Assembly (NCBI GenBank): GCA_934096815.1
Contig: CAKOMY010000001.1
Span: forward strand, 156,614-220,613
Length of the DNA: 64,000 nt
Direction: 5' to 3'
Source of the DNA: an uncultured Bacilli bacterium
GTDB taxonomy: Bacteria; Bacillota_I; Bacilli_A; RF39; UBA660
The position numbers and the translations under genes are program-made. The notes below the pieces were generated by a model that worked only from the letters and a program-made list of their open reading frames with translations, was not told the DNA's origin and did no database searches. This document shows positions 25,753 through 57,039 of the stretch, piece after piece (position 1 is the stretch's first letter; every line of letters begins with the position of its first letter).

Positions 25753-25757
25753 TTATG

Positions 25758-25783
25758 AAAGTACTCGAAAGAGTGCTTTTTTT
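25758..25783 (+). terminator. Terminator of hsp20
   Basis: AAAGTACTC-GAAA-GAGTGCTTT followed by a T-run. Confidence 0.7.
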
Positions 25784-25861
25784 AGTGAATTATTTATTGA
25801 TAAGATATTGATTATAAATTATTTTTTTGTTAAAGTTAAGATAGTAATAGAGGAGTTTGTG

Positions 25862-42830: not shown

Positions 42831-43552
42831 TGAAGTATTTTGCTAGTGTTAGTTATGATGGTTCTAAATTTTATGGATTTCAAAAATTAAATGATTATGA
42901 TACTGTTCAGAAGGAATTAGAAAGAGCACTTGGTATTATAAATAAAAGTTATGTTGCTGTAAAAGGTGCTGGAAGAACTGATAGAGGTGTTCATGCATAT
43001 AGTCAAGGTATTAGTTTTGAACTTAATGGAGGTATTCCTGCATCAAAGTTAAAGAATGTTATTAATAGAGTTTTAAATGATTATGTTCATATAAATTATG
43101 TTGAAGAAGTAAGTGATGATTTTCATCCTAGATTTGATGCTGTAAAGAAGAAATACGAATATGTTATTAATTTAGGTGAGTTTGATCCAATAATTAATGA
43201 TTATGTTTATAATTATAATAATAAATTAGACATAAGAAGGATGAGAAGGGCAAGTAAAGCATTTATTGGTTTTCATTCGTTTAAGGCTTTTACATCTGGT
43301 GCAAGAGATAATTATAATAGTGTTATTTATAGCATTAAATTTAAAAAGAAGGATGACTTTTTAACTATTACATTTGTAGGTAAAAGTTTTTATAGGTATA
43401 TGGTTAGAAATATGGTTGGGGCTTTGATACAGGCTGGTAATAATAAACTTGATAAGAATGACATAAAGATGATGTTAGATAAGGAGAAAGTAAATTGTAA
43501 GTATAATACAGCACCAGCATGTGGATTATATTTAGTTGATGTTTACTATTAA
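42830..43552 (+). CDS. truA: tRNA pseudouridine(38-40) synthase TruA
   Basis: YDGSKFYGFQ and the catalytic RTDRGVHA motif. Confidence 0.92.
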   Translation: MKYFASVSYDGSKFYGFQKLNDYDTVQKELERALGIINKSYVAVKGAGRTDRGVHAYSQGISFELNGGIPASKLKNVINRVLNDYVHINYVEEVSDDFHPRFDAVKKKYEYVINLGEFDPIINDYVYNYNNKLDIRRMRRASKAFIGFHSFKAFTSGARDNYNSVIYSIKFKKKDDFLTITFVGKSFYRYMVRNMVGALIQAGNNKLDKNDIKMMLDKEKVNCKYNTAPACGLYLVDVYY

Positions 43553-43554
43553 GT

Positions 43555-44445
43555 TTGGGTATGAATGAATTAGATTTGATGGATGGTAGTAAAAATGATT
43601 ATCAGTTGGTTACAGAACTTAGTAAAGTTGTTAGAAGTTATAAAGATAAAAATAAACCTGTTGATAAAAAATTTGTTTATAAAGTTGCAAATGTGTGTTT
43701 AATTAATAATGAAGTGGATTTAAAAAATGGTTTGATAATTGTTGGTAACTCTAAAGAAATTGAAAATGATTATGAATCTTGTTATGGTGATGATATGATT
43801 ACATATTCGTCTTTATCTTTAAGAAATTTTTATAAACGGATAGACAATTTTGGAAGTGCATATAATTTTGGCAATCATAATATGCTTTCTTATTATTCTG
43901 TAATATGTACTTTAATTCATGAAATGTCTCACGCTAGACAGGATTATATTGTAAACAATCATCCTTATTCATTTGCTGGAATTATTTATTCCTATTGTAG
44001 TAATGTTTTTGAAAGTGAGCCACTTTTTTATGATATATACTATGATTGTTTTCCAGAAGAAAGAAATGCCTTTTTAAGAGGAAATTATATTGCTAATATG
44101 GTAATTAAGCATGTTTATGGCGATAAATTATCACTTTTTTTCAAGGAATTATTTTTTCAAGAATTACTTATTAATTATGACTATGATATGTATCCATTAA
44201 AGAGATTTGGTGATGCTTGTAAGCAGTTTGGATATGACTATTTTGATAGATTAATTCCTGATGTTGAATTAACTCAAGAAAATTTTTTTGAACGTGTTTG
44301 GTGTGGTTATAGGATAACGGAAGAAGAATATAATTATTTACTTGATTTAAGTATTGGTATTTCTTATCCTAAAAATGATGTGGTAAAAGAATATTTAAAA
44401 AAATCTTCAATAAAAAGATTAATTTTAGATTTTAAAAAGAAATAA
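43555..44445 (+). CDS. Hypothetical protein with HExxH motif (putative Zn-metallopeptidase-like)
   Basis: LIHEMSHARQ, with a downstream Glu (NVFESEP) that could be a third ligand. Confidence 0.4.
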   Translation: MGMNELDLMDGSKNDYQLVTELSKVVRSYKDKNKPVDKKFVYKVANVCLINNEVDLKNGLIIVGNSKEIENDYESCYGDDMITYSSLSLRNFYKRIDNFGSAYNFGNHNMLSYYSVICTLIHEMSHARQDYIVNNHPYSFAGIIYSYCSNVFESEPLFYDIYYDCFPEERNAFLRGNYIANMVIKHVYGDKLSLFFKELFFQELLINYDYDMYPLKRFGDACKQFGYDYFDRLIPDVELTQENFFERVWCGYRITEEEYNYLLDLSIGISYPKNDVVKEYLKKSSIKRLILDFKKK

Positions 44446-44592
44446 AATTATATATTATAATATTGAAGATGATTTATTAGAATAATTATTTCGTTTATTA
44501 GATTTATTATTTCTGATATTATTTTTTAAATAGGTTTATAATATAAATAGACAATAAATTAATATTTTGATATTATTTAGGTGTGATGTAGA

Positions 44593-45627
44593 ATGAATAT
44601 ATTAATTAATGGACATAATATTTATTTAATTTTATTGGTAACTTTTATATGTTGTGTTTTATTAGTGCCGCTTGCTAAAGTTGTTGCAAAACATATTGGA
44701 GCAATAGATATGCCTAATGAGAGAAAGGTGCATAAAAAACCAATGCCTAGATTAGGGGGACTTGCAATATATTTAACATTTTTAATTGGCTATATGTTAT
44801 TTGCACCTATTAATGAACAGATGATTTCAATTCTTATTGGAGGATTTATAATTATTATTCTTGGAATATGTGATGATATTAAACCAATTAGAGCAAGATA
44901 TAAATTTTTAGTTCAGATAGTAGCTGCTTCTATTGTTGTATTTTATGGTAATATATATTTACCTAATATAAGTGCACTTGGATTATCTCTAACTTTTGGA
45001 AAATGGGGTTATCCTTTAGCTATATTCTTTATTTTGGCTATTATTAATGCAATAAATTTAATTGATGGTATAGATGGGTTAGCAACAGGTACTAGTGCAA
45101 TATTTTTTGTTACTATAACTATAATTGCACTTCTGCTAGATAGGATTTATGGTTTAGATGTTATTTTATGTGTAATTATGCTTGGTGCTTGTTTAGGATT
45201 TTTAATGTATAATAAACCGCCTGCTTCAATATTTTTAGGAGATACGGGTAGTACGTTTTTAGGTTTTATTATTGCTATAATAGCACTTTTAGGTTATAAA
45301 ACGGCTACATTTACTAGTTTAATTATTCCAATATTTATATTACTTTTACCAATACTTGATACAGTGTTTGCAATGATTAGAAGATACTTAAAGGGAGAAA
45401 ATATAGGTGAGCCTGATAAAGAACATTTACATCATCAATTACTTAAACTTAATAATAGTACTACTAAGACAGTATTAATTATGTATGGAATTGATATTCT
45501 ATGTTCTGTGATAAGTGTTTTATATGCCTTAGGATATAATTTAACTGCTATAGTTTTATATTTATTATTAATGTCATTTATATTATTTTTGATTTATAAA
45601 ACTGATATATTATTTAAACATAAGTAG
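44593..45627 (+). CDS. tagO: UDP-GlcNAc:undecaprenyl-phosphate GlcNAc-1-phosphate transferase (TagO/WecA, MraY-like)
   Basis: PNERKVHKKPMPRLGG, DDxxP and NAINLIDGIDGLA motifs, with a polytopic membrane topology. Confidence 0.88.
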   Translation: MNILINGHNIYLILLVTFICCVLLVPLAKVVAKHIGAIDMPNERKVHKKPMPRLGGLAIYLTFLIGYMLFAPINEQMISILIGGFIIIILGICDDIKPIRARYKFLVQIVAASIVVFYGNIYLPNISALGLSLTFGKWGYPLAIFFILAIINAINLIDGIDGLATGTSAIFFVTITIIALLLDRIYGLDVILCVIMLGACLGFLMYNKPPASIFLGDTGSTFLGFIIAIIALLGYKTATFTSLIIPIFILLLPILDTVFAMIRRYLKGENIGEPDKEHLHHQLLKLNNSTTKTVLIMYGIDILCSVISVLYALGYNLTAIVLYLLLMSFILFLIYKTDILFKHK

Positions 45628-45684
45628 TTAGCTATTTATGTTTTTTTGATTATTTGATAAAATTTTTTTAGAAAGAGATTTTAT

Positions 45685-46413
45685 ATGAAGAATAGTAATT
45701 GTAAATTATTAGGTTATAATGTTTGCATATTAAATAAAAATGATATTGTAGATAAAATAAATAAGAGTAAGGATAGAAATATTATATTTAATTTAAATCC
45801 GATAATTATGGTAAATTTTAATAATAATATAGAATATAAAGCGTTTATAAATAATGAGAAATATAATATACCTGATGGATATGGAACAATTCTAGGTATG
45901 AGAATTAATGGCAATAAAGGATTTAATCAGTTAACTGGAGTAGATATGTTTAATGAACTTTTATGTAATGCATGTAAATATGATAAGAAAGTTTATTTAT
46001 ATGGTGCTAAAAACGAAGTTATTGAAAAGACTGTTAAAGTATTAAAAGAGAAGTATATTAACTTAAATATATGTGGTTATATGAGTGGATATAGTAAAGA
46101 AAAAGATGTATTAAATGATATAAAAAAATGTAAACCAGATTATTTATTTGTTGGTATAGGATCACCTAAACAAGAAGAATTTATCATTAGAAATGAAAAG
46201 TTGTTTAGAAATATAAGTGTTATTATGCCTGTTGGTGGTACGTTTGATGTTGTATCTGGTTTAAAGAAAAGAGCACCAATTATTTATCAAAAACTATACT
46301 TAGAATGGTTATATAGAATGATTAAAGAGCCTAAAAGAATTAAAGATAATGTTAAGATATTAAAATATTTATATTTGGTAATATTTAAAAATGGAGGTAA
46401 AGATGAAAAATAA
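45685..46413 (+). CDS. tagA: WecB/TagA/CpsF-family glycosyltransferase (N-acetylmannosaminyltransferase-like)
   Basis: Family profile (DGYGTILGMR, YLYGAK, VGIGSPKQEEFI, LEWLYRMIKEPKR). Confidence 0.85.
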   Translation: MKNSNCKLLGYNVCILNKNDIVDKINKSKDRNIIFNLNPIIMVNFNNNIEYKAFINNEKYNIPDGYGTILGMRINGNKGFNQLTGVDMFNELLCNACKYDKKVYLYGAKNEVIEKTVKVLKEKYINLNICGYMSGYSKEKDVLNDIKKCKPDYLFVGIGSPKQEEFIIRNEKLFRNISVIMPVGGTFDVVSGLKKRAPIIYQKLYLEWLYRMIKEPKRIKDNVKILKYLYLVIFKNGGKDEK

Positions 46414-47365
46414 AAGATTATATGTAGTTATACCTTGTTATAATGAAGAAGAAGTTTTAAGAGAAACAAGTAAGAGATTAAATGTTAAGTTAAACGAATT
46501 AATTAAAGATAAAACTATTTCTAAAGATAGTAAAGTATTATTTGTTAATGATGGATCTAAAGATAAAACTTGGAATATTATATGTGAATTAAATAAAGAA
46601 AATAAATTATTTAGTGGAATTAATTTATCAAGAAATAGAGGACACCAAAATGCGTTGGTAGCAGGACTTATGACTGCTAAAGAATATGCTGATGTGGTAA
46701 TATCTATGGATGCTGACTTACAAGACGATATTAATGCGATTGATGAAATGCTTAAAGATTATTATGATGGATCAGAAGTTGTTTATGGAGTTAGATCCTC
46801 AAGGGCAAAGGATACTTTCTTTAAAAAGTTTACAGCTGAAGCATTTTACAAGTTTATGAAATTTATGGGAGCTGATGTTGTATTTAATCATGCTGATTAT
46901 AGATTAACAAGTAAAAGAGTTTTAGATAATTTTGCAAATTATAAAGAAGTTAATTTATTTTTAAGAGGAATGTTTCCTTTAATTGGATTTAAATCTAGTA
47001 TAGTATATTATGAAAGGGCTGAAAGATTTGCAGGTGAGTCTAAATATCCATTAAAGAAAATGCTTAATTTTGCATGGGATGGGATAACATCTTTTAGTGT
47101 TAAACCAATAAGAATGATTCTTGATTTAGGTATATTTATTTGTATGATAAGTTTTGTAGTACTTATTTATTGTTTAATTAGAAAGATTAGCGGTGCTACT
47201 GTGGAAGGATGGACATTTATTGCTTGTTCATTATGGTTTTTAGGTGGTATTCAAATGTTTTCACTTGGTATAATTGGAGAATATGTTGGTAAGGTTTATA
47301 GTGAAACCAAAGCAAGACCTAGATATATTATTCAAGATAATTTATTAGAAAAGAAGGAAAAATAG
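46403..47365 (+). CDS. GT2-family polyprenol-phosphate glycosyltransferase (GtrB/ArnC-like) with C-terminal TM helices
   Basis: GGAGGT RBS. VVIPCYNEE, DGSKDKT and DADLQDD (the DxD motif). Two C-terminal TM helices. Confidence 0.85.
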   Translation: MKNKRLYVVIPCYNEEEVLRETSKRLNVKLNELIKDKTISKDSKVLFVNDGSKDKTWNIICELNKENKLFSGINLSRNRGHQNALVAGLMTAKEYADVVISMDADLQDDINAIDEMLKDYYDGSEVVYGVRSSRAKDTFFKKFTAEAFYKFMKFMGADVVFNHADYRLTSKRVLDNFANYKEVNLFLRGMFPLIGFKSSIVYYERAERFAGESKYPLKKMLNFAWDGITSFSVKPIRMILDLGIFICMISFVVLIYCLIRKISGATVEGWTFIACSLWFLGGIQMFSLGIIGEYVGKVYSETKARPRYIIQDNLLEKKEK

Positions 47366-47367
47366 AT

Positions 47368-47398
47368 AAAGCATATAATTGTTATGCTTTGTTTTGTT
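47368..47398 (+). terminator. Terminator after the GT2 gene
   Basis: AAAGCATA-loop-TATGCTTT followed by a T-rich tail. Confidence 0.65.
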
Positions 47399-47483
47399 TA
47401 TTTATTTAATAAATTGTATTGATATGTTCAAAAAAAGATGATATAGTTTAATTATGAACAAATTAATTATAGGAGTTGATTAT

Positions 47484-48461
47484 ATGAAAAAGTATATGTA
47501 TTTGTTGTTTTTGCTTATTTTATTTGTTGTAACAGGTTGTTCAAAAAAAGGAGATCAAATTGTTATTTATACATCTATGGAGGAAAATCGTAATAAAGCT
47601 TTAAAAGAGCAATTAGCTGAAAAATTTCCGGATAAAAAAATTGTGGTTCAATATTTATCAACTGGGAATTGTGCTGCAAAAATAAAAAATGAAGGTATAG
47701 AAGTGGAAGCAGATATTGTCCTAGATTTAGAAACTGCACATATGGCTGAACTTGAGGATAATTTTGCTGATTTATCATCTTTTGATACAAGTATTTATCT
47801 TGATGGAGTTAATAAGTCAAATAGATATTTAACTTGGACTAAATATACCATGACGTTAGTTATTGATAAAAATTATTTTGATGAACATAATTTATCGATA
47901 CCAAAAACTTATGAAGATTTGTTAAAACCTGAATATAAAAATTTAATTGCTATCCCTGATCCTAAAACATCTGGTACTGGTTACGCTTTTTACTTAAATG
48001 TTGTTAATATAATGGGTGAAGATAATGCTATTAAGTATTTTAAAAAATTAAAAAACAATTTAAGAGAATTTACAACTTCTGGTTCTGGACCTACAAACTT
48101 ATTAAAACAAGGTGAAATAGCTATTGCAATGGGAATGACAAGTCAAGGGGTAGAAGCTATTAATGAAGGGTATAATTTTAAAATTGTTTCTTTAAAAACT
48201 GGTGCTCCATATAATACTACTAGTTTTGGTATTATTAAGGGAAGAGAAAACAAAGAAAATGTACGTGAAGTTTTTGAGTGGTTAATGAATGATTTTGGAA
48301 AATATGATAAAGAATATTTTCTACCTGATAAGATTCTTAAAAATCAAGAAGTTAAAGTGAAAAATTATCCTACAAATTTAAAAGATGCAAAAATGGATGG
48401 TATAGATAGTGTTAGCGTCAAACAAGATTTAATTAGTAAGTGGGAAAAAGTTAATGGCTAG
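47484..48461 (+). CDS. ABC substrate-binding lipoprotein, FbpA/AfuA/ThiB/PhnS (COG1840-type) family
   Basis: Lipobox VTGC. Cluster E-like SBP profile. The start is at the ATG after TAGGAG. Confidence 0.75.
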   Translation: MKKYMYLLFLLILFVVTGCSKKGDQIVIYTSMEENRNKALKEQLAEKFPDKKIVVQYLSTGNCAAKIKNEGIEVEADIVLDLETAHMAELEDNFADLSSFDTSIYLDGVNKSNRYLTWTKYTMTLVIDKNYFDEHNLSIPKTYEDLLKPEYKNLIAIPDPKTSGTGYAFYLNVVNIMGEDNAIKYFKKLKNNLREFTTSGSGPTNLLKQGEIAIAMGMTSQGVEAINEGYNFKIVSLKTGAPYNTTSFGIIKGRENKENVREVFEWLMNDFGKYDKEYFLPDKILKNQEVKVKNYPTNLKDAKMDGIDSVSVKQDLISKWEKVNG

Positions 48462-49215
48462 TATTGAGGTTAAAAATATTTCAAAAATTTTTGATAATAA
48501 ATTGGTATTAAATGATTTGAATTTTAAAGTTAATGATGGCGAATTATTATCTATTTTAGGTAAATCAGGTTGTGGTAAAACGACTTTATTAAAGATATTA
48601 ATTGGTATTGAGAGACCATCGAGTGGAAGTATTTTAAAGAATAATAAAAATATTACAAATTATGATATTTCTAAGAGAGATATGGGAATAGTATTTCAAA
48701 ATTATGCATTGTTTCCAAATATGACTGTTCTTGAAAATGTTTCATATGCTTTAAAAAATAAATTAAAAAATAAGAATGAAGCAATAAAACAGGCTATGGA
48801 TATAATTTCAATGGTGAATTTAGAGGAACATGTAAATAAATATCCTAATGAACTATCAGGAGGTCAGATGCAAAGAGTGGCAATAGCTAGAACTTTAGCT
48901 CTTAAACCTGATGTTATTTTATTTGACGAAGCATTAAGTGCATTAGATGCTGAAAATAAAATAATTCTTAGAAATAAAATTAGAGAACTTAATAAAAAAT
49001 TTAACATTACAATGATATTTATTAGTCATGATCAAGAAGAAGCATTTTCAATATCTGATCGTGTTATGATTATGAATGATGGTTCTATTGAACAAATAGA
49101 TGAACCAAGTGAGATTTTTAAACATCCTGCGTCAAAATATGTTGAAGATTTTGTAGTTAATCATTTAAAAGAAAAGGTAACTTCAATTCAAAAGTGTATT
49201 AAGGCTGATTTATGA
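48454..49215 (+). CDS. ABC transporter ATP-binding protein (FbpC/ThiQ/PotA-like)
   Basis: Walker A GKSGCGKTT, LSGGQMQR signature and ILFDEALSALD Walker B. Overlaps the SBP gene. Confidence 0.9.
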   Translation: MASIEVKNISKIFDNKLVLNDLNFKVNDGELLSILGKSGCGKTTLLKILIGIERPSSGSILKNNKNITNYDISKRDMGIVFQNYALFPNMTVLENVSYALKNKLKNKNEAIKQAMDIISMVNLEEHVNKYPNELSGGQMQRVAIARTLALKPDVILFDEALSALDAENKIILRNKIRELNKKFNITMIFISHDQEEAFSISDRVMIMNDGSIEQIDEPSEIFKHPASKYVEDFVVNHLKEKVTSIQKCIKADL

Positions 49216-50795
49216 TGAAAAAATTTAAAATTAATAAAACAGAAATATTAGTATCATTATTTTTAATTGTTTCTGTTTTGATTCCAATTTCAAAACTATT
49301 TATTTATGTTAAATGGGAAACATTAGGCAAATTAGTAACTTCCAATGCATTTAAAAATGCTTTAAATAATTCGCTTATTGTAACGTCTATTTCGACAATT
49401 CTATCAATTATAATTGCTTATGTTATTGCCTATACTTTAAATAGAGTTGATATTAAGTTTAAAAAGTTTTTTAAGTTAGTATTTGTATTTCCAATGCTCA
49501 TTCCATCTGTTTCACATGGATTAGGGTTAATTAATTTATTTGGTACTAATGGAATTATATCTAGATATTTTGATTTTAATATTATTGGACCTGTTGGAAT
49601 TATAATTGGATCAATAATGTATTCTTTTCCAGTTGCGTTTTTAATGCTAGATGATGGATTTAAATATATTGATAATAATATGTATTATGTTTCAAAGTCG
49701 CTTAATTTAAATAGTTTTCAAATTTTTAAAAATGTTACTTTGGTTTATTTGAAAAAATCTATTCTGTCTTCTATTTTTGCTGTGTTTACTATGATTTTTA
49801 CTGATTATGGTGTACCAATAGCGGTAGGTGGCAAATTTAATACTTTACCCGTATTTTTATATAAAGAAGTTATAGGTTTACTTGATTTTTCAAAGGGAAC
49901 TATGATTGCAATGTTTTTACTTATTCCTGCAATAATTTCTTTTTTAGTTGATACTTTTGTTAAGGATTATAATAATGAAAATACTGGTAATAAAAATTAT
50001 TATAGTTCTAATAAAGTTTTATCTATATTTTTAAAATCATTTGTTGTTTTGATTACTATTTTAATTTTTGTGGTACTTGGTTCATTTATTTATTATGCAT
50101 TTGTTGATAATGTTGTACTTAATAATTCGTTTTCATTAAAACATTTTGAATATGTTATTGAAAATAGTGTTGGTGATTATTTATTAAATTCATTAATCAT
50201 ATCTTTATTTGTTGCAGTTATTGGAACTTGTATTTCTTATTTTGCTGCTTATAATACGGCAAGAGTTAGAGGAAAAATGTCTAAATTAATTCATTTATTT
50301 ACGATAATTACTTTAGCTATCCCTGGTATAGTTTTGGGACTTGCTTATACGATTTGTTTTAAAGGTACTTTTATCGCTAATACATTTGTCATAATAATAA
50401 TTTGTAATATTGTACATTTTATTGCATCACCTTATTTGATGGCTTACAACGCACTTTTAAAAGTTAATAGTAATTATGAAGTTGTTGCTTCTACACTGAA
50501 TGTTGGTATTTTAAAAATTATTAAGGATGTAATTATTCCTTGTACTAAAAGTACAATTATCGAAATGTTTTCTTATTTTTTTGTTAATAGTATGATTACA
50601 ATATCAGCTGTAACATTTTTATACACTTCTTCAACAATGCCTGTTTCATTATTAATAAATAATTATGAGGGAAATATGATGTTGGGAGAGGCTGCAATTG
50701 TTTCAATAATAATTTTATTAATTAATTTATTTGTTAAAATTGTTACTAATATTTTTGTGTCAAAAGATAGAAAGAAGGTTTATATTAATGATTAA
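49212..50795 (+). CDS. Fused two-domain ABC permease (FbpB/ThiP-like, ~12 TM)
   Basis: 527 aa with two BPD_transp_1-like halves. Overlaps the ATPase gene by ATGA. Confidence 0.85.
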   Translation: MMKKFKINKTEILVSLFLIVSVLIPISKLFIYVKWETLGKLVTSNAFKNALNNSLIVTSISTILSIIIAYVIAYTLNRVDIKFKKFFKLVFVFPMLIPSVSHGLGLINLFGTNGIISRYFDFNIIGPVGIIIGSIMYSFPVAFLMLDDGFKYIDNNMYYVSKSLNLNSFQIFKNVTLVYLKKSILSSIFAVFTMIFTDYGVPIAVGGKFNTLPVFLYKEVIGLLDFSKGTMIAMFLLIPAIISFLVDTFVKDYNNENTGNKNYYSSNKVLSIFLKSFVVLITILIFVVLGSFIYYAFVDNVVLNNSFSLKHFEYVIENSVGDYLLNSLIISLFVAVIGTCISYFAAYNTARVRGKMSKLIHLFTIITLAIPGIVLGLAYTICFKGTFIANTFVIIIICNIVHFIASPYLMAYNALLKVNSNYEVVASTLNVGILKIIKDVIIPCTKSTIIEMFSYFFVNSMITISAVTFLYTSSTMPVSLLINNYEGNMMLGEAAIVSIIILLINLFVKIVTNIFVSKDRKKVYIND

Positions 50796-51678
50796 TGAAA
50801 ATGAATTTGAGGTATTAGTTTGTTTAGAAAGAGAAAAAAGATGTTGTTCACAACGTGAAGTTGCTAAATTAGCTAATTTATCTTTGGGAACAGTTAATAA
50901 AGCAATGATTTCATTAACTAAAAAGAATTTTATAAGTGAAAATGGTAATATTACTTCCGAAGGTATTAATGCTTTAGAACCATATAGAGTTAAAAGAGCG
51001 GTTTTTTTAGCAGCTGGATTTGGTTCTAGAATGGTTCCTATTACTTTGAATACACCTAAACCTTTAGTTAGAGTAAATGGTAAAAGAATTATTGAAACTT
51101 TAATAGATGCAGTCAAGAAAGCTGAAATTCCTGAAATTGTTATTGTAACAGGATATTTGCATGAACAATTTGAAGAATTATTAAGGAAATATGACAACAT
51201 TAAATTAATATACAATAAGTTTTATAATGAAATGAATAATATATCTTCTGCATATGTTGTTAAAGATTTATTAAAAAATGCTTATGTATTAGAATCTGAT
51301 TTATTACTTTATAATTCAAATATAATAAGAAAGTACGAATTTCATTCAAATTTCTTAGGAAAAAAGGTGGATGTTACAGATGATTGGTGTTTTGATGTAA
51401 AAAATGGAATTATTATAAAAGAAAGACAAGGTGGCTATGATTGTTATCAAATGTATGGTATTTCATACTATGATGAAAAAGATGGCGAAAAAATATTTTC
51501 TGATATAACTAAAGTTTTTAATATGCCAGGTGGTAAAGAAAAATATTGGGAACAAGTCATTTTGGACGTTTGTAAAAATAATTATAAAATTTATTTAAGA
51601 GAATGCTATGATGGTGATATAATAGAAATAGATTCATTTAAAGAGTTAAAAGAAATTGATAAATCTTATGATATTTAG
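50788..51678 (+). CDS. LicC-like nucleotidyltransferase (NTP_transferase) fused to an N-terminal winged-helix domain
   Basis: AVFLAAGFGSRMVPITLNTPKPLVRVNGKRIIE aligns closely to LicC CTP:phosphocholine cytidylyltransferase. It is preceded by ~75 aa with a MarR/ArsR-like wHTH (VLVCLEREKRCCSQREVAKLANLSLGTVNKAM). The start overlaps the permease stop. Confidence 0.75.
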   Translation: MINENEFEVLVCLEREKRCCSQREVAKLANLSLGTVNKAMISLTKKNFISENGNITSEGINALEPYRVKRAVFLAAGFGSRMVPITLNTPKPLVRVNGKRIIETLIDAVKKAEIPEIVIVTGYLHEQFEELLRKYDNIKLIYNKFYNEMNNISSAYVVKDLLKNAYVLESDLLLYNSNIIRKYEFHSNFLGKKVDVTDDWCFDVKNGIIIKERQGGYDCYQMYGISYYDEKDGEKIFSDITKVFNMPGGKEKYWEQVILDVCKNNYKIYLRECYDGDIIEIDSFKELKEIDKSYDI

Positions 51679-51707
51679 ATAATAATTTTTTATCAGTGGA
51701 GGTTTTT

Positions 51708-54608
51708 ATGGTAAAAGAAAATAAAATATCTTTACTTTTTGTGTTATTACCATTTCTTGATTTATTTACAGCATTATTTACAAGAAACACTATTTTTGTT
51801 ATTTCTCCTGGAATAATTTTTAAGAGTTTATTACTTTTATATTTTGTAGTATATATATTAAACTCTAAATCAAAGTTTAAAAAAGTTTTGATTTGCTATT
51901 TAATATTTATATTGCTTTATTTATTTATGTATTTCATCATTAAGAATGATCTTCTTGATTTAAATTATTTATTAACTGAACTTACTTTTTTATTTAAATT
52001 AATTTATTTTCCTATTTGTTTTATGGGATTATTGTGTTTTTTTGATGATAACAATATTAAAGAGAATACTATTACTGGTATTTTTAAATACAGTTTAATT
52101 ATTTATGTATTATTACTAATTATTCCTACAATATTTGGTATTTCTTATACTACTTATCCAATGCATTTAAAAGGATATATTGGATTATATTATGCAGGAA
52201 ATGAGATTGCTAATATAATGGTTATATTATTTCCATTTGCTTATTTATTTATTAATAAAAGTAAATATAGTTTTTTAATTATTTTTCCAATTATTCTTGT
52301 TATGATGATGATTGGAACTAAAGTCGCGACCTTTGGTTGTTTAATAATTACAATATTATCATTAATATTTAGTATAATAAAAAATAAATTTAGAATTAAT
52401 AAAGTTGTAATTAAGTGTTTTTCTATATTTGTATTTGCTTTATTTATATCTACAAATTCATATGCTGTTTATAATTATAATTATATAAAGAATAATGTTT
52501 ATAATGATGAAAGTAAAGAAATTATTATTGATGATAATAATAAAGCAAAAGTTGAGGAAATTCAAGGATATTTAAATATTTTTTATGATAAAAATAAATT
52601 AACTAAAATAATTAGACCATTAGTAAGTGGTAGGGATATACTTCTTGCTAATACGATAAGTATATATAATGATTTAGATAATGATTCTAATATATGGTTA
52701 GGAATAGGTTTTTCTAATACTAATAGCGTTAATAATACAAATGTTGCTAGGTTAATAGAAATTGATATTTGTGATTTATATTTTCATTTTGGAATTATTG
52801 GGTTATTAATTTCTTTATTTCCATTTATAATTGTTGGTTATTTATTTATTGTTAATTTTAGTAAAATTAAACTTAATAGTATATATTTATTATTTATATT
52901 ATTTCTTGTGATTGGTGTTTCAACATTTAGTGGACATATTTTATTTGCGCCAGCTGTATCAATTTATTTGGTGTTATTATTGTTATTATTTTTATATGAA
53001 TTTGATTGTTATGGGAGAAAAATTAATAAAAATAAAAAGATATCAATTTTAGCACTTCATTTAGGATATGGTGGTGTTGAAAAATCTATTATTGATCAAG
53101 CTAATATGTTAAGTGAATTTTATGATGTTGAAGTTGTGTCTTTATATAAGCTTTATGATTATATTCCTTATAAGGTTAATGATAAAGTTAAAATGAAATA
53201 TTTATCAAATTTAAAACCAAATAGGAATGAATTTAAAGATGCTGTTAAGAGAGAAAATATTAAAGATATAATTAATGAAGGCTTTAAAGCAATTAAAATA
53301 TTATATTTAAAAAGCAAGTTGATAGGTGATTATATTTATAATTGCGATTCTAATGTTGTTATTTCTTCTAGAATTGATTTTACAAAATTGTTAAATAGAT
53401 ATGGTAATAATTTAGCTGTAAAAGTAGCTGAGGAGCATGTCTATCATAATAATAGTAAAAAATATTTTAAATTGTTAAAGAAATCTATGAAAAATATAAA
53501 TTATTTAATTCCTGCAAGTAAATATTTATATGATGATTATGAAAAATTATTTAAAAATGAAAATGTGATTGTTAAATATATACCTCAAATTGTTGGTGAT
53601 ATTCCTTTAAATAAAAGTAAATGTAATAATTATAATATTGTTTCAGTTGGAAGATTATCTAAAGAAAAGGGATATGATGATTTGATTAAAGTGTTTGATT
53701 TAGTTCATAAAAAAAATAAAAAAATTAAACTTACAATTGTTGGTGATGGAGATGAAAAAGAAAATTTAGAAAATTTGGTCAGTCAATATAAGTTAAATAA
53801 GTATATAAAATTTACTGGTTTTTTAACTCAAGATAAGTTAAAAGATGTATATATTAATTCTTCATTATATGTTATGACTTCTTTAGAAGAATCTTTTGGT
53901 TTAGTTTTATTAGAAGCAATGAGTTATGGAATACCTTGTGTTGCTTTTGATTCTGCTTTAGGAGCTAAAGAAATAATTGATGATAAATCAGGTATATTGA
54001 TTAAAAATCGTAATTTAGCTGAAATGGCTGATACTATATGTAATTATTTTGATGGAAAATATAAATTCAATATTTCTGATAAGATTCAAAATTATTCATA
54101 TGATAAAGTTAAAATTGTGTGGAGAAATTTTGTTGATGATTGTTTAAATAAAAATGATAAAAAAAGATGTTTATTTGTTTCTAGTCAAGGTGGTCATTTA
54201 AATGAATTGTTGAAATTAGAAGATACTATTAATAATTATAATTCTTTAGTGATTACTGAAAGATGCAATAATAATTTAAAATATAAAACTAAATATTTGA
54301 TGGCTACAACTAGATATCAATTTAGTTATGTTTACGGTATATTTTATAATTGTTTTAAGAGCCTAAATATATTTTTGAGTTTTTCCCCTGATGTTATAAT
54401 TTCAACCGGATCTCATACCGCAATACCTTTGTGTTTAATTGGTCACTTATTTGGAAAAAAGATAGTATATATAGAATCTTTTGCAAATATTTCTACTAAA
54501 TCGTTAGCAGGAAGGATAGTTTATAATTTTGCTGATGTTTTTATAGTTCAATGGGAGAATATGCTTAAATTATATCCTAATGCGATATATATAGGAGGTT
54601 TGTATTGA
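51708..54608 (+). CDS. Tri-domain fusion: Wzy/WaaL-like polytopic membrane domain + GT4 glycosyltransferase + Alg14-like domain
   Basis: About 440 aa of TM helices with a Wzy_C-like loop (IWLGIGFSNT...LYFHFGIIGLL). A GT-B/GT4 core (VGRLSKEKGYDDL...EESFGLVLLEAMSYGIPCVAFD). The C-terminal 140 aa match Alg14/Cps14F-like (LFVSSQGGHLNE...GSHTAIP...IESFANIS). Confidence 0.7.
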   Translation: MVKENKISLLFVLLPFLDLFTALFTRNTIFVISPGIIFKSLLLLYFVVYILNSKSKFKKVLICYLIFILLYLFMYFIIKNDLLDLNYLLTELTFLFKLIYFPICFMGLLCFFDDNNIKENTITGIFKYSLIIYVLLLIIPTIFGISYTTYPMHLKGYIGLYYAGNEIANIMVILFPFAYLFINKSKYSFLIIFPIILVMMMIGTKVATFGCLIITILSLIFSIIKNKFRINKVVIKCFSIFVFALFISTNSYAVYNYNYIKNNVYNDESKEIIIDDNNKAKVEEIQGYLNIFYDKNKLTKIIRPLVSGRDILLANTISIYNDLDNDSNIWLGIGFSNTNSVNNTNVARLIEIDICDLYFHFGIIGLLISLFPFIIVGYLFIVNFSKIKLNSIYLLFILFLVIGVSTFSGHILFAPAVSIYLVLLLLLFLYEFDCYGRKINKNKKISILALHLGYGGVEKSIIDQANMLSEFYDVEVVSLYKLYDYIPYKVNDKVKMKYLSNLKPNRNEFKDAVKRENIKDIINEGFKAIKILYLKSKLIGDYIYNCDSNVVISSRIDFTKLLNRYGNNLAVKVAEEHVYHNNSKKYFKLLKKSMKNINYLIPASKYLYDDYEKLFKNENVIVKYIPQIVGDIPLNKSKCNNYNIVSVGRLSKEKGYDDLIKVFDLVHKKNKKIKLTIVGDGDEKENLENLVSQYKLNKYIKFTGFLTQDKLKDVYINSSLYVMTSLEESFGLVLLEAMSYGIPCVAFDSALGAKEIIDDKSGILIKNRNLAEMADTICNYFDGKYKFNISDKIQNYSYDKVKIVWRNFVDDCLNKNDKKRCLFVSSQGGHLNELLKLEDTINNYNSLVITERCNNNLKYKTKYLMATTRYQFSYVYGIFYNCFKSLNIFLSFSPDVIISTGSHTAIPLCLIGHLFGKKIVYIESFANISTKSLAGRIVYNFADVFIVQWENMLKLYPNAIYIGGLY

Positions 54609-55081
54609 AAATTTTTGTTACTTTAGGTAGTAGTAATCAAAATTTTAATAGATTACTAAAAAAAATAGATGAGCTTGCAAAAAATAATATTATTGATGAT
54701 GTAATTGTTCAGTCTAATTCAAGTGATTATGTTCCTAAAAACTATATAATTAAAAATCATTTAAATTTTGATGAGTATAAAAAGTATGTTGAAAACTGTG
54801 AAATTTTGATAACTCATGGTGGTGTTGGATGTATTTTTGATGGATTAATGAATAATAAAAAGATTATTGCATTTCCTAGGATGAGTGAATATCATGAAGC
54901 TGTTAATGATCATCAAAAACAAATTGTAGATAAATTTTATAGTGATGGATATATATTAACTGGTAATATTGATGATTTAGATAAATTAATCACAAATATT
55001 GATAGTTTTACTCCAAAAAAATATAAATCTAATACTAATTTATTTAATAAAAAACTTATTGACATTATCGAAAAATTATAG
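54605..55081 (+). CDS. Alg13-like glycosyltransferase catalytic subunit (Glyco_tran_28_C; Cps14G/EpsF-like)
   Basis: TTG start overlapping the upstream TGA, with an AGGAGG RBS. MKIFVTLGSS ... ITHGGVGCIF motifs. Confidence 0.75.
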   Translation: MKIFVTLGSSNQNFNRLLKKIDELAKNNIIDDVIVQSNSSDYVPKNYIIKNHLNFDEYKKYVENCEILITHGGVGCIFDGLMNNKKIIAFPRMSEYHEAVNDHQKQIVDKFYSDGYILTGNIDDLDKLITNIDSFTPKKYKSNTNLFNKKLIDIIEKL

Positions 55082-55102
55082 AGAGCCTATTTGCTCTTTT
55101 TA
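55082..55102 (+). terminator. Terminator after the Alg13-like gene
   Basis: AGAGC-loop-GCTCT followed by T5. Confidence 0.6.
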
Positions 55103-55261
55103 ATTTAAATAATTTTGATACGAATAATTGCTAATCTTGCTAGGCTTTTATTTTAAGGTATAAAAACATTGTAAAAGCAGAAACTTTTGTATTATACGTT
55201 AAAAAACTTGAAATACTATTAATTTAGTTTTTTTTTTGTTATGATTATATCGTGGTGGAAA

Positions 55262-56257
55262 ATGAAAATAGATATGTATGATTTTGATGATACCATTTAT
55301 AATGGGGATTCAACTGTTGATTTTATAAAATATTGTTATAAACATAAGTATATTAAATTTAGGGATATAATAAAGATTATAGGAGCTTTTATTAAATATT
55401 TTTTTGGGGTTATTAATATAACTCAGTTTAAAGAGGTATTATTTAGTTTTTTAAATAATGTTAATGATGGGTATTGCTTAGTAAATGATTTTTGGGATGA
55501 ACATTATAAAAATATTAAGAAATTTTATTTAGATAAAAATCATGATAATGATGTTATTAATTCTGCTAGTCCTTATTTCTTACTTAAGCCTGTTTGTGAT
55601 AAGTTAAGCGTTAAAGATTTAATTGCATCTGATGTAGATTTAAAAACTGGAAGGTTTAGAGAAAAAAATAATAGTAGAGAGGTAAAAGTAGATAATTATA
55701 AAAAAAAATATATAAATTATATTTTAGATGAATGTTATAGTGATAATCCTTTTAATGATAAATTTATATTAGAACTTGCTAATAAGCCTTATGTGGTTAA
55801 GGGAGAAAAATTAATTAATTATTATGATTATAAACCATCTTTTGTAAAATCTATTTTTAGAAAGTTATGGGGATTTTATAGAAGTCATTTAGAAGTTATA
55901 AATTATTTATTTATAGGTGGTTGTACAACTGTTATATCAATTTTAAGTTATGCTTTATTTGCTAAAGTTTGTTATCTTGATTTAGTTGTATCTAATGTGT
56001 TATCATGGATTATGGCTGTTTTATTTGCTTATTTTACTAATAGAGTTATAGTTTTTAATAGTAAAAATAAGAATTATATAAAAGAGTTTATTTCATTTAC
56101 GGGAAGTAGGGTTATAACTTTAATTCTTGATACTTTGTTAATGATTTTGTTTGTTAGGTCATTAAATATGAATGATATGATAGCTAAGTTAATTGTTCAA
56201 ATTGTTGTTATTATTGGAAATTATTTAATTAGTAAATTACTAGTGTTTAAGAAGTAG
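55262..56257 (+). CDS. HAD-superfamily hydrolase domain fused to a GtrA-like 4-TM domain
   Basis: HAD motif I DFDDT at the N-terminus. The C-terminal 120 aa match the GtrA family (LFIGGCTTVISILSYALFAKV ... ISKLLVFKK). Confidence 0.65.
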   Translation: MKIDMYDFDDTIYNGDSTVDFIKYCYKHKYIKFRDIIKIIGAFIKYFFGVINITQFKEVLFSFLNNVNDGYCLVNDFWDEHYKNIKKFYLDKNHDNDVINSASPYFLLKPVCDKLSVKDLIASDVDLKTGRFREKNNSREVKVDNYKKKYINYILDECYSDNPFNDKFILELANKPYVVKGEKLINYYDYKPSFVKSIFRKLWGFYRSHLEVINYLFIGGCTTVISILSYALFAKVCYLDLVVSNVLSWIMAVLFAYFTNRVIVFNSKNKNYIKEFISFTGSRVITLILDTLLMILFVRSLNMNDMIAKLIVQIVVIIGNYLISKLLVFKK

Positions 56258-56269
56258 GTGTGAATATAT

Positions 56270-56902
56270 ATGAAAAAGTTTATAGGTTTTTATAGGGATT
56301 GCGATTTATTAACCATGACTGGTACTTTTATGGCTCTTTTAGGGTGTATTTTATCAATTAATGGTAGTCGTGTTATACCTATATTTTGTTTAATTATATC
56401 GGGGATATGTGATGCTTTTGATGGTAAGCTTGCAAGAAGAAAACTTTGTTCTAATATGCAAAGGGTTTATGGTGTTCAATTAGATTCTTTATCTGATTTA
56501 ATTTCATTTGGTGTTTTTCCTTTAGTTTATACAATTAATATATTACCTAAGAATTATTATTTTGGATGGATTGCTTTAATATTTTATAGTCTATGTGGTA
56601 TGATTAGACTTGCTTACTTTAATACTCTTGATATATGTAAGAAAGCTGATAAAAAATGTTTTGTTGGTATGCCAATTACTTCTATTGCTATTTTTTATCC
56701 AATTGTTTTTATGTTTTTATGGGTAGTTAAATTTAAATTTTATCCGGAAATTGTTTCTGTTTTTATGATTTTAATGGGATTATCATTTATTAGTACTATT
56801 AAAATAAAGAAATTAGATGATAAGAAAAAGATTGTTCTTTCGATTGGCGGTATATTATTTATTATTTGTTTTTTAGTTTTTTATTTCTTTTGTAGAAAAT
56901 AA
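56270..56902 (+). CDS. CDP-alcohol phosphatidyltransferase, PssA-like
   Basis: DAFDGKLARRKLCSNMQRVYGVQLDSLSDLISFG fits D-G-x2-A-R-x8-G-x3-D-x3-D. The best resemblance is to B. subtilis phosphatidylserine synthase. No psd gene is adjacent. Confidence 0.7.
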   Translation: MKKFIGFYRDCDLLTMTGTFMALLGCILSINGSRVIPIFCLIISGICDAFDGKLARRKLCSNMQRVYGVQLDSLSDLISFGVFPLVYTINILPKNYYFGWIALIFYSLCGMIRLAYFNTLDICKKADKKCFVGMPITSIAIFYPIVFMFLWVVKFKFYPEIVSVFMILMGLSFISTIKIKKLDDKKKIVLSIGGILFIICFLVFYFFCRK

Positions 56903-57039
56903 TAAATTTGTATGTTATTTAATACAAATTTTTTTATTTTGTTAGACAAATTAATTAATTTTGGTAGTATATTTTATTTTTTTGTTATTTGCAAGTTAAA
57001 CTTAAGTATAATAAAATGCTTTTTGTAAGGAGAGATGTT

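Follow-up and report, generated by a model that had tools for sequence, protein, structure and literature searches.

The Lic-1 systems of S. pneumoniae and H. influenzae (LicB, LicA, LicC and LicD) activate an exogenous head group with CMP and move it to a glycan. Phosphonyl-tailoring pathways rely on a cytidylyltransferase of the same LicC-like fold, PntC, of which Ari1348 and Tde1415 are examples (PDB 6PD1/6PD2; Rice et al. 2019, PMC6697681). Importers of 2-aminoethylphosphonate (AEP) are known from the ABC systems PhnSTUV, PhnS2T2U2, AepXVW and AepSTU, which feed phosphonate catabolism (PhnWX, PhnWAY) (PMC8316502), and among further ABC systems AfuABC imports hexose-6-phosphate and P5PAB imports pyridoxal-5'-phosphate (PMC4546632, PMC8427247).

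Here we describe a four-gene operon within a 64,000-nt stretch of DNA from an uncultured gut bacterium of the Bacilli (the window), in which an ABC importer is coupled to a LicC-like nucleotidyltransferase with an N-terminal winged helix-turn-helix (wHTH) domain. Our preferred reading, to which we give a probability of about 0.6, is that these genes form a salvage variant of the phosphonyl-tailoring (Pnt) pathway, combining AEP import, activation with CMP and self-repression.

Organisation of the operon

An earlier note on this DNA had described four genes coupled by overlapping stops and starts over positions 47484-51678, and the gene coordinates (Table 1) bear this out, with overlaps of 8, 4 and 8 nt. 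The families that it had named for a profile search (NTP_transferase, SBP_bac_6/8 and two BPD_transp_1) were all matched in Pfam, Pfam and NCBIfam agree with its AfuA/PhnS-type substrate-binding protein (SBP), ATPase and fused permease, and they also recover the tagO-tagA-GT2 neighbourhood that it had noticed upstream. For the SBP gene we prefer the start at 47484 to the ATG at 47454, because AGGAG lies 8 nt upstream of the former and the latter falls within an arm of the putative operator. The start of the enzyme gene is backed by full-length homologues opening with MINENEFE.

Table 1. Features of the operon and its surroundings (window coordinates)
Feature	Position	Strand	Evidence
TagO/WecA-like GT4-family transferase (context only)	44593-45627	+	Pfam, NCBIfam
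TagA/WecG (context only)	45685-46413	+	Pfam, NCBIfam
PgfS/ArnC-like GT2 (context only)	46391-47365	+	Pfam, NCBIfam
AT-rich hairpin AAAGCATA-TAATTG-TTATGCTTT, then T-rich tract	47369-47392	+	direct reading of sequence
Sigma-70-type operon promoter: -35 TTGATA, 17-nt spacer, extended TG -10 TATAGT	47419-47447	+	promoter scan
Putative operator, inverted repeat GTTCA-N24-TGAAC	47426-47459	+	repeat counts, window and 146 loci
Substrate-binding lipoprotein gene (SBP)	47484-48461	+	Pfam SBP_bac_1/6/8/11, lipoprotein signal LFVVTGC
ABC ATPase gene	48454-49215	+	Pfam ABC_tran 2.4e-37
Fused double permease gene	49212-50795	+	two BPD_transp_1 stretches (Pfam)
Nucleotidyltransferase gene	50788-51678	+	Pfam NTP_transferase 1.8e-12, HTH_24
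N-terminal wHTH domain, residues 1-66	50788-50985	+	HTH_24, AlphaFold model, conservation
LicC/PntC-type cytidylyltransferase domain, residues 64-296	50977-51678	+	PDB match, Foldseek, active-site residues
970-aa fusion, O-antigen-ligase-like + GT4 + Alg14/PssD (context only)	within 51696-55081	+	Pfam, NCBIfam
Separate Alg13/PssE-like partner (context only)	54605-55081	+	Pfam, NCBIfam
Terminator-like hairpin	55080-55099		scan
HAD-GtrA fusion	55241-56257	+	Pfam, NCBIfam
CDP-alcohol phosphatidyltransferase	56270-56902	+	Pfam, NCBIfam

The AT-rich hairpin behind the GT2 gene is likely its terminator and would part it from the importer operon; it was missed by our terminator scan, which is G+C-biased. 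The operon promoter showed 10/12 matches plus the TG extension in the scan, and orthologous loci have an equal layout.

Searching the whole 64-kb window by tblastn with seven kinase domains returned no choline-kinase-like gene, in line with the absence of a LicA-like kinase noticed earlier. More generally, the window and its vicinity yielded no kinase and no gene for C-P bond synthesis, and neither Ppm nor a transferase that uses AEP turned up in the window. The operon differs from Lic-1, having neither the LicA kinase nor a LicB/EamA permease and using a binding-protein ABC system for uptake, and from the PntC loci, its enzyme gene being coupled to an importer instead of to C-P bond synthesis.

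Importer and enzyme

In NCBIfam, each of the three ABC components was matched best by a putative AEP transporter family (PhnS2, PhnT2 or PhnU2), yet far below the equivalog cut-offs. For the SBP, three AEP binders lead the list, none of them reaching its cut-off (phnS2, 1.2e-47, then PRK15046 and PhnS); the ATPase matches PhnT2 (5.5e-93; 312 bits, cut-off 457.7), and the permease matches the PhnU2 profile end to end at 2.4e-107, also below cut-off. As in the AEP importers named above, the SBP is of the SBP_bac_6 family and the permeases are fused or paired. The structure prediction for the SBP had a pLDDT of 34.9. Compared with its closest solved relatives, AfuA and P5PA, it keeps the Ser/Thr and helix-dipole phosphate cradle (T60, T165, S199), but it has S220, Q221 and N244 at the head-group positions where AfuA has H205, D206 and E229 (H203 in P5PA), and so possesses neither the sugar ligands of the one nor the pyridoxal ligands of the other. 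SBPs from loci containing Ppm share an identical set of invariant residues with it. From these residues and family matches, the SBP is probably an AEP-binding member of the AfuA/PhnS/AepX family.

The core of the fourth protein had previously been aligned to LicC, and its top PDB sequence match is indeed S. pneumoniae LicC (1JYK, E = 2.6e-33, residues 64-291). Its AlphaFold model (pLDDT 90.3) retrieved LicC first in Foldseek (TM 0.88-0.90), followed by PntC-AEPT (6PD1/6PD2), which speaks against a sugar-1-phosphate enzyme. The nucleotide loop, G77-x-G79-S-R81-x8-P90-K91, corresponding to the GxG(T/S)R-x8-PK loop of PntC, is intact, with the conserved Lys and Arg in place, and conservation extends to the metal-ligand positions, D171 and LicC-216/218. 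Together with the predicted fold, this supports a catalytically competent enzyme.

The active-site signature (E169, W200, Y253-W254-E255) bears on which head group would be activated. With E169 and E255, the window enzyme has Glu in place of Asp105 and Asp192 of LicC, and thus Glu at both positions that contact the AEP amine, in agreement with AEP-specific PntCs and unlike the Asp/Asp of LicCs. In the alignment of Rice et al. (2019, PMC6697681, Supplementary Fig. 15), LicC-105 is Glu in all four PntCs and Asp in both LicCs, and LicC-192 is Glu in Tde and Bfr PntC too. Glu at LicC-105 also occurs outside phosphonate settings, in a protein whose gene neighbours encode a kinase and an EamA permease (L080) and in clusters sharing 51-54% identity with LicC. 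The window enzyme scores almost as high against S. pneumoniae LicC (119 bits) as against O. uli PntC (128 bits with an OCR-read sequence), and it shares only about 20% identity with Tde-PntC. We infer that the domain is a PntC-type CTP:2-aminoethylphosphonate cytidylyltransferase, whose product would presumably be CMP-AEP for surface decoration.

A distinctly unlikely alternative is that phosphocholine, released for instance when host or dietary sphingomyelin or phosphatidylcholine is broken down, enters through the ABC system and is turned into CDP-choline for LicD-type decoration by an enzyme that would be a genuine LicC. LicC is the top solved relative, the LicC aromatic box (W200/Y253/W254) is retained and many relatives have LicD genes downstream; however, Ari-PntC prefers AEP despite retaining this box (Rice et al. 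2019, PMC6697681), and Pnt clusters contain LicD-like transferases too. The Glu/Glu pair weighs against phosphocholine, as do the gene neighbourhoods described below.

Gene neighbourhoods in related loci

We compared 146 related loci (2.04 Mb), with a subset of 65 genome loci for adjacency. The enzyme gene stands beside an SBP-type ABC importer in 77 loci, beside an amino-acid permease (APC) in 27 and beside the AEP synthesis genes Ppm, Ppd and AEP transaminase (AEPT) in 25, but next to a choline-kinase-like gene in only three. About 42 of the 65 genome loci have the SBP, ATPase, permease and enzyme genes adjacent, permuted orders included, and in four cases (L060, L051, P0246, P0248) permease, wHTH and cytidylyltransferase are fused in frame, giving single polypeptides of 859 aa (L060) and 858 aa (P0246). 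With several gene orders and such fusions, the linkage of importer and enzyme goes far beyond chance. Together with the rarity of kinases and the phosphate-binding residues of the SBP, it strengthens the earlier proposal that a phosphorus-bearing head group is imported and activated without a kinase.

Among the candidates then considered, AEP is favoured over phosphocholine by the Ppm-Ppd-AEPT clusters, where 22 of 25 orthologues have a signature identical to that of the window enzyme. Orthologues 52-59% identical to it sit in Pfam-confirmed pntC-AEPT-(CTP_transf_like+PEP_mutase)-Ppd operons. Three loci (L058, L134, L155) combine the ABC importer with Ppm, and the APC permease occurs with AEPT and Ppm in L109-112 and with AEPT only in L148; kinase-free sister loci with an amino-acid permease are a better fit for an aminophosphonic acid than for phosphocholine or choline. 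Among eight loci fetched around other LicC-like proteins, a choline-kinase-like gene was adjacent in the five with enough flank (L077/78, L080, L081/82). These represent three distinct arrangements, and the discriminating position is D in two of them and E in one. Phosphocholine salvage finds a parallel in the paralogous subgroup L077/78, where an importer of equal type lies beside a D/D-type enzyme and a choline-kinase fusion; adjacency to a choline kinase, which if widespread would have spoken against the proposed pathway, is confined to a paralogous subgroup.

We also regard as unlikely, if less so, that a different amino-phosph(on)ate is imported and cytidylylated (phosphoethanolamine, N-methyl-AEP, 1-hydroxy-AEP or phosphonoalanine). 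The first of these is isosteric with AEP, a Glu/Glu pocket would suit any primary amine, several AEP derivatives are made by phosphonate clusters and the sub-threshold transporter matches do not fix the precise ligand. Nevertheless, the synthesis genes linked to the enzyme make up the canonical AEP trio (Ppm, Ppd and AEPT), we noticed neither an oxygenase nor a methyltransferase in the loci examined, and the three closest curated SBP families bind AEP. That the importer merely serves phosphorus or nitrogen nutrition through AEP catabolism, as PhnSTUV does, with the nucleotidyltransferase beside it by coincidence, appears very improbable: the characterised relatives PhnS, AepX and AepS do supply catabolism, but we noticed no phnW/phnX/phnA-type catabolic set among the Pfam matches or ORF clusters of the examined loci, and overlapping frames, permease-enzyme fusions and a shared operator favour a single pathway. 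Unlike the known AEP importers, the window importer thus seems wired to anabolic activation.

The winged helix and a putative operator

BirA and NadR are bifunctional enzyme-repressors that join an N-terminal (winged) HTH to a nucleotidyl-transferring salvage enzyme, and their operator is located in the promoter of uptake or biosynthesis genes. The window enzyme likewise joins an N-terminal wHTH to nucleotidyl transfer and has a putative operator in the promoter of the uptake genes, although its catalytic fold and ligands are unrelated and its DNA binding is predicted. This domain, absent from canonical LicC as the earlier note had observed, and absent likewise from PntC, matches Pfam HTH_24 over residues 3-49 above cut-off (26.8 against 21.9 bits), and is modelled with helices at 4-16, 22-28 and 33-45, a wing and a helix at 57-66 (block-mean pLDDT 92-97 across residues 1-70). 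Its best-conserved stretch across the family is SLGTVN, within the recognition helix LSLGTVNK.

The left arm of the inverted repeat abuts the -35 element and the right arm lies just past the -10. In the window the repeat has two matches, where chance would give 0.31. Across the related loci, where the conserved form is GTTCA-N24-26-TGAAC, there are 113 exact copies, 86 of them at most 160 bp upstream of the SBP (49), pntC (28), AEPT (8) or APC (1) gene. It accompanies the wHTH-enzyme gene whichever its partner (ABC, APC or AEP synthesis), in Bacilli and Clostridia, and related loci have no other conserved regulator gene. Since this promoter-overlapping repeat co-occurs with the family, the wHTH probably binds it and the enzyme probably autoregulates its operon as a repressor, which gives strong comparative support to a previously voiced idea of self-regulation.

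It is possible, though we doubt it, that the repeat is bound by a different regulator or is no operator, with the winged helix serving oligomerisation or ligand sensing. The MarR profile is below its Pfam cut-off (22.6 against 24.6), and where it is fused to the permease the wHTH would be anchored at the membrane, awkward for a purely DNA-binding role; against this, two loci (L051, L053) have a free-standing wHTH copy besides the fused one, and the HTH_24 match, the conserved recognition helix and the distribution of the repeat all argue for DNA binding.

Discussion

The evidence does not bear out, as it was stated, the proposal that transferases at 51708-56902 attach the head group. No LicD lies within the window, and the sole CDP-alcohol-using enzyme nearby, the CDP-alcohol phosphatidyltransferase, looks PssA-like (top PDB match 7POW, 2e-9). 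It could nonetheless be a CMP-AEP user; its pairing with the HAD-GtrA fusion is kept in the closest relatives only.

Under AEP salvage, the lipoprotein SBP would capture extracellular AEP via its phosphonate group and pass it to the permease and ATPase, and the wHTH-fused enzyme, acting as PntC, would join it directly with CTP to give CMP-AEP. Imported AEP already bears phosphorus, so a kinase would be unnecessary. A phosphotransferase, LicD-like or TagF-like in relatives, would then move AEP onto an acceptor, which may be a wall glycopolymer or a lipid. By binding TGTTCA-N24-TGAACA over the operon promoter, presumably in response to AEP, CTP or CMP-AEP, the winged helix would make the enzyme that activates AEP also the repressor of its acquisition.

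Operon organization and genomic setting

The four reading frames of the operon and their coupling, proposed in the earlier note from the DNA alone, were borne out, with overlaps of 8, 4 and 8 nt, and profile searches upheld each of the four gene assignments: a substrate-binding lipoprotein (SBP), an ATPase, a permease and a nucleotidyltransferase with an N-terminal winged helix (wHTH). The window has a G+C content of ~24%, and its nearest relatives are uncultured human-gut ‘Tenericutes’/Bacilli metagenome-assembled genomes, e.g. UMGS1661. According to Pfam and NCBIfam, the operon is preceded by tagO, tagA and a gene for a PgfS-like GT2, and followed by a gene for a 970-aa protein in which an O-antigen-ligase-like membrane domain is fused to GT4 and Alg14/PssD domains, its Alg13/PssE-like partner being encoded next, with a 4-nt overlap. 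An AT-rich hairpin between the upstream genes and the operon, together with a promoter (TTGATA-17-TGnTATAGT), suggests that the operon is its own transcription unit. An Rfam scan of positions 44000-58000 returned no riboswitch and no other known RNA. Just 5' of tagO lies a 296-aa ORF with an HExxH motif (LIHEMSHARQ), which has no Pfam match and is kept in the related locus L001; three further ORFs of the window match nothing in Pfam at E ≤ 0.001.

Coordinates of the operon, its control region and other features of the window
Feature	Position	Strand	Assignment
ORF	20100-20903	-	267 aa, no Pfam family
ORF	23152-24990	+	612 aa, no Pfam family
ORF	25721-27166	+	481 aa, no Pfam family
Second repeat match	42989-43022		within truA coding sequence
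HExxH ORF	43555-44445		296 aa, no Pfam match
Hairpin	47369-47392		AT-rich
Promoter	47419-47447		TTGATA-17-TGnTATAGT
Inverted repeat	47426-47459		GTTCA-N24-TGAAC, putative operator
Binding protein gene	47484-48461	+	SBP_bac_1/6/8/11 and lipoprotein signal (Pfam)
ATPase gene	48454-49215	+	ABC_tran (Pfam)
Permease gene	49212-50795	+	527 aa, two BPD_transp_1 modules in one protein (Pfam)
Nucleotidyltransferase gene	50788-51678	+	NTP_transferase/NTP_transf_3, HTH_24 N-terminal to them (Pfam)
Ligase-like fusion	51696-54608		970 aa, with GT4 and Alg14/PssD
Alg13/PssE partner	54605-55081		Alg13-like
HAD-IB/GtrA fusion	55241-56257		phosphatase-like and transmembrane parts
CDP-alcohol phosphatidyltransferase	56270-56902		PssA-like

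Fold and active site of the cytidylyltransferase

The best match of the enzyme among solved structures in the PDB is Streptococcus pneumoniae LicC (1JYK, E = 2.6e-33, residues 64-291), and the second is the PntC-AEPT fusion 6PD1, AEPT being the transaminase of 2-aminoethylphosphonate (AEP) synthesis. Foldseek searches with the AlphaFold model of the enzyme (pLDDT 90.3, pTM 0.89) placed 1JYK/1JYL on top (E ~1e-20 to 1e-21, TM 0.88-0.90), 6PD1/6PD2 next (~1e-12) and RmlA-type enzymes after these (~1e-10 and weaker); as modelled, the fold resembles LicC and PntC more than it does sugar-1-phosphate nucleotidyltransferases. The GxG(T/S)R-x8-PK signature, a consensus taken from the legend of Supplementary Fig. 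15 in Rice et al. 2019 (PMC6697681), is complete (G77-F-G79-S80-R81-(8 residues)-P90-K91) and invariant among family members. The earlier note had named a nucleotide-binding loop without its conserved Lys/Arg, or an enzyme of the sugar-1-phosphate type, as arguments against its proposal; neither applies, the loop being complete and LicC and PntC ranking above the RmlA-type enzymes by fold. The family is large, with at least 7996 proteins at E ≤ 1e-10 and 176 clusters (50% identity) at E ≤ 1e-30.

For specificity residues we used a single published PntC/LicC comparison (Rice et al. 2019, PMC6697681), in which Glu104 and Glu196 of Tde-PntC touch the AEP amine, the corresponding LicC residues being the smaller Asp105 and Asp192, and in whose alignment LicC position 105 is Glu in all four PntCs and Asp in both LicCs. 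The window enzyme has Glu at both equivalents, E169 and E255. As a decisive marker, Glu versus Asp at position 105 had to be downgraded, since Glu also occurs in L080, a locus linked to a kinase and EamA, and in clusters that share 51-54% identity with LicC; outside phosphonate contexts we found it in L080 and in the related proteins P0346 and P0365. The window enzyme keeps the aromatic box, as does the AEP-preferring Ari-PntC (PMC6697681). Sequence distance was uninformative, the enzyme being equidistant from Oul-PntC and Spn-LicC (the PntC sequences were read by OCR from the Rice et al. supplement).

Linkage of importer and enzyme

To follow the operon across relatives we compared 146 sources (2.04 Mb), namely 65 loci from species genomes, 80 from metagenomes and the window. 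In 77 of them the enzyme gene has ABC genes beside it, in three gene orders (SBP-ATP-PERM-enzyme, enzyme-SBP-ATP-PERM and ATP-PERM-enzyme-SBP), and in some cases permease, winged helix and transferase form a single polypeptide (L060, 859 aa; L051; P0246, 858 aa; P0248). This conserved adjacency in shuffled orders, together with the fusions, is strong evidence from gene organization that the cargo of the permease would be the substrate of the enzyme.

The importer itself points to a phosphonate. The best NCBIfam families of the SBP, ATPase and permease are PhnS2, PhnT2 and PhnU2, respectively, of a putative AEP transporter (TIGR03261/03265/03262), at scores below the equivalog cut-offs (162.7 versus 392.75, 312 versus 457.7 and 359.8 versus 593.25). 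The next two families for the SBP are also AEP binders, again at scores well under their equivalog cut-offs. The phosphate cradle of AfuA (S37, T150) and P5PA (T37, T149, S183), formed by Ser/Thr at helix N-termini, is kept in the SBP: T165 (in SGTGY) and S199 (in TSGSG) align directly and T60-G61 by position, and T60, T165 and S199 are invariant or nearly so among 66 orthologous SBPs. The sugar ligands of AfuA, H205, D206 and E229, are absent, the aligned residues being S220, Q221 and N244; a sugar-phosphate or PLP ligand was rejected on the absence of the head-group residues of AfuA and P5PA. The 66 orthologues, those of loci with PEP mutase (Ppm) included, share an invariant residue set with many acidic members (E33, E70, D77, E83 and E211, with Y167 and Y243), plausible partners for the ammonium group of AEP. 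A ferric or thiamine ligand seems improbable, as the corresponding families give far weaker scores or none; the SBP has no YY dipeptide and no FbpA match at E ≤ 0.01 in the PDB. Its structure prediction reached a pLDDT of 34.9, the input homologues all being ≥91% identical.

The SBP is present on hundreds of contigs, some of 1.2-1.27 Mb, and at ≥91% identity falls into >120 sequence clusters, while identity in the neighbouring enzyme drops to 74-80% within the first few matches, which suggests a recombination boundary of a variable glycan locus at or near pntC, the enzyme gene.

Choline kinase, AEP synthesis and the identity of the head group

An imported choline would need a kinase before activation. 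A tblastn search with seven divergent choline-kinase domains gave no match in the 64-kb window, and just 3 of the 146 loci contained one. For contrast, we took five other LicC-like representatives, of which four have Asp and one has Glu at the discriminating position, and examined eight loci that surround them. All five loci with enough flank have a neighbouring kinase (L077/78, L080 and L081/82), the contigs of L075, L076 and L079 being too short. The orders are ATP-PERM-SBP-LicC(D/D)-[NT+Choline_kinase] in L077/78, [NT+Choline_kinase]-LicC(D/D)-BCCT in L081/82 and kinase-LicC-EamA, with Glu, in L080. The earlier note had taken widespread occurrence of its gene order beside a choline kinase as an argument against direct activation of an imported head group; given these counts, that arrangement belongs to a paralogous subgroup (L077/78) and not to the window's own family. 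The sister transporter beside a choline-kinase fusion in L077/78 nevertheless counts as a caveat on AEP specificity.

Rice et al. 2019 (PMC6697681) define PntC operationally by its location beside ppm. We searched for Ppm with the PEP-mutase motif EDK-x5-NS, followed by Pfam, and the motif scan found no ppm in the 64-kb window. In related loci the association does exist. L041 has an orthologue (57% identical) followed by genes for a class-V aminotransferase, a CTP_transf_like+PEP_mutase fusion and a TPP-dependent decarboxylase (Pfam), by sequence the canonical AEPT, Ppm and decarboxylase (Ppd) set for AEP synthesis. Overall, 25 of the 146 loci have Ppm, Ppd or AEPT beside the enzyme, with orthologues 52-59% identical, and 22 of these 25 enzymes carry the exact signature of the window (E169, D171, W200, Y253-W254-E255). 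An ABC importer occurs together with Ppm in L058, L134 and L155. An amino-acid permease of the APC type is used in 27 loci, which lack any kinase; APC permeases accompany AEPT and Ppm in L109-112 and AEPT in L148. Since choline would need a kinase, the APC loci would fit an aminophosphonic acid and not choline.

Taken together, the gene neighbourhoods and residues favour AEP as the substrate, with a probability of roughly two thirds. We do not go higher because Glu105 also occurs outside phosphonate contexts, the enzyme lies as close to Oul-PntC as to Spn-LicC and keeps the aromatic box, and because of L077/78; phosphocholine and phosphoethanolamine-like compounds jointly share the rest.

The winged helix and a putative operator

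The N-terminus of the enzyme matches HTH_24 (26.8 bits, cut-off 21.9), with MarR below its cut-off (22.6 versus 24.6) in Pfam, and the AlphaFold model predicts with high confidence a wHTH topology of three helices, wing and linker helix. The best-conserved stretch of this domain is its recognition helix, LSLGTVNK. An inverted repeat, GTTCA-N24-TGAAC, overlaps the operon promoter, the left arm abutting the -35 element and the right arm following the -10. The window holds two matches to the repeat, against 0.31 expected; the second lies within truA, is conserved with that gene (L001:2995-3028) and is probably a chance match, not another operator. The 146 sources together contain 113 exact copies (spacers of 23-27 nt). 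Of these, 86 stand no more than 160 bp 5' of a gene for the SBP (49), the enzyme (28), AEPT (8) or an APC permease (1), and further loci have versions with one mismatch. In Bacilli the -10 element sits 11 nt into the spacer, and in Clostridia it precedes the repeat. No DNA-binding domain other than the winged helix of the enzyme itself is conserved with the repeat, and GTTCA-N24-26-TGAAC in the promoter of the salvage genes would be the cognate operator of this domain. On the simplest model, in which DNA binding, effector and sign of regulation are all presumed, the enzyme would double as a repressor that switches off the acquisition of AEP, be it import or synthesis. The logic resembles that of BirA and NadR, of which the enzyme would be the PntC counterpart.

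Variations of this layout exist. L016, in whose genome the operon is split, has promoter and operator once more in full between the SBP and ATPase genes (L016:1446-1480). In one Clostridia subgroup (L098, L100, L102-L105, L110, L113; e.g. L098:1302) the repeat stands between pntC and the AEPT-Ppm-Ppd genes, where the putative operator would control AEP synthesis rather than import. Fusions of wHTH, nucleotidyltransferase and choline kinase are widespread (P0340, P0349, P0372, P0373, P0375 and P0385, ~590 aa; L077:9008-10756; L081:6245-8014), and giant wHTH-NT-kinase-wHTH-NT proteins occur as well (P0242/P0243, ~890 aa). This kinase-fusion family has the same SLGxVN recognition helix, and L081/82 have GTTCA-N25-TGAAC at the gene start; thus, genuine choline (lic-type) loci seem to share the design of wHTH and operator.

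Possible acceptors of the activated group

The earlier note had looked for the acceptor step among the transferases downstream of the operon. The sole CDP-alcohol enzyme of the window has the catalytic motif of its family, but is not supported as the user of CMP-AEP: it matches PssA-type serine phosphatidyltransferases best, and only in the closest relatives does it accompany the operon. Directly 5' of it lies a fusion of a HAD-IB phosphatase-like and a GtrA transmembrane part, and the pair is kept in L001 and L071-L073. A lipid product is possible, since CDP-alcohol transferases, predicted makers of phosphonolipids, occur in some phosphonate clusters.

Relatives of the operon encode LicD (27 of the 146 loci) and LicD-GT4 fusions, and a trio recurs among them: a sulfatase/LtaS-like membrane protein, a ~100-aa protein without Pfam match and a fusion of YidC (60KD_IMP) with a TagF-like (Glyphos_transf) domain; LicD-like transferases are typical of Pnt clusters too. 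The trio lies beside pntC or lic genes in L002, L015, L029, L034, L037, L045-L048, L052 and L081/L082 and is a candidate machine for moving the CMP-activated group to a polymer. The 64-kb window has no LicD, LicD-GT4 fusion or trio.

In the Bacilli loci L003 (10911-12728), L006 (10895-12712) and L066-L070 (11074-12891), pntC is directly followed by a gene for a 605-aa protein joining a LicC-like nucleotidyltransferase to a CobD/HisC-like class I/II PLP enzyme, the latter matching threonine-phosphate decarboxylase at 1.7e-45; some such loci have two LicD genes. This fusion may both synthesize and activate a further head group of the amino-alcohol phosphate type.

Implications of a proposed phosphonate salvage

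PntC/LicC chemistry, SBP_bac_6 AEP importers and wHTH-enzyme fusions are already known. The literature searched gave no earlier account of a kinase-less, ABC-coupled LicC/PntC, of an HTH-fused LicC or of AEP scavenging for bacterial surfaces. Also undescribed in searchable literature are the wiring of an AEP importer to PntC without Ppm or kinase, i.e. phosphonate salvage for surface tailoring, a wHTH fusion with a family-wide putative operator that would also govern Ppm-Ppd-AEPT operons, and single permease-PntC polypeptides.

We tentatively propose, at somewhat less than even odds for the picture as a whole, that abundant, uncultured gut Bacillota with small genomes scavenge AEP that other organisms release (diet, protozoa, Bacteroides) for display on their envelope without making C-P bonds, that the acquisition regulon (ABC, APC or Ppm-Ppd-AEPT) is under a cytidylyltransferase acting as ligand-sensing repressor, and that in some lineages fusion to the permease makes uptake and activation one machine. 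The fusions suggest channelling from the ABC importer to the cytoplasmic activating enzyme. To our knowledge, predictions that a bacterium decorates its surface with phosphonates have until now relied solely on whether it has PEP mutase. If the proposal is true, ppm-based surveys would undercount phosphonate-decorated bacteria, including very abundant human-gut and rumen lineages, and AEP would be a cross-fed surface building block, beyond a source of phosphorus or nitrogen. It would also make feeding experiments a simple way to label uncultured Bacilli in their walls, and the wHTH fusion with its sharply defined operator would be a compact, testable case of an enzyme repressing its own substrate supply.
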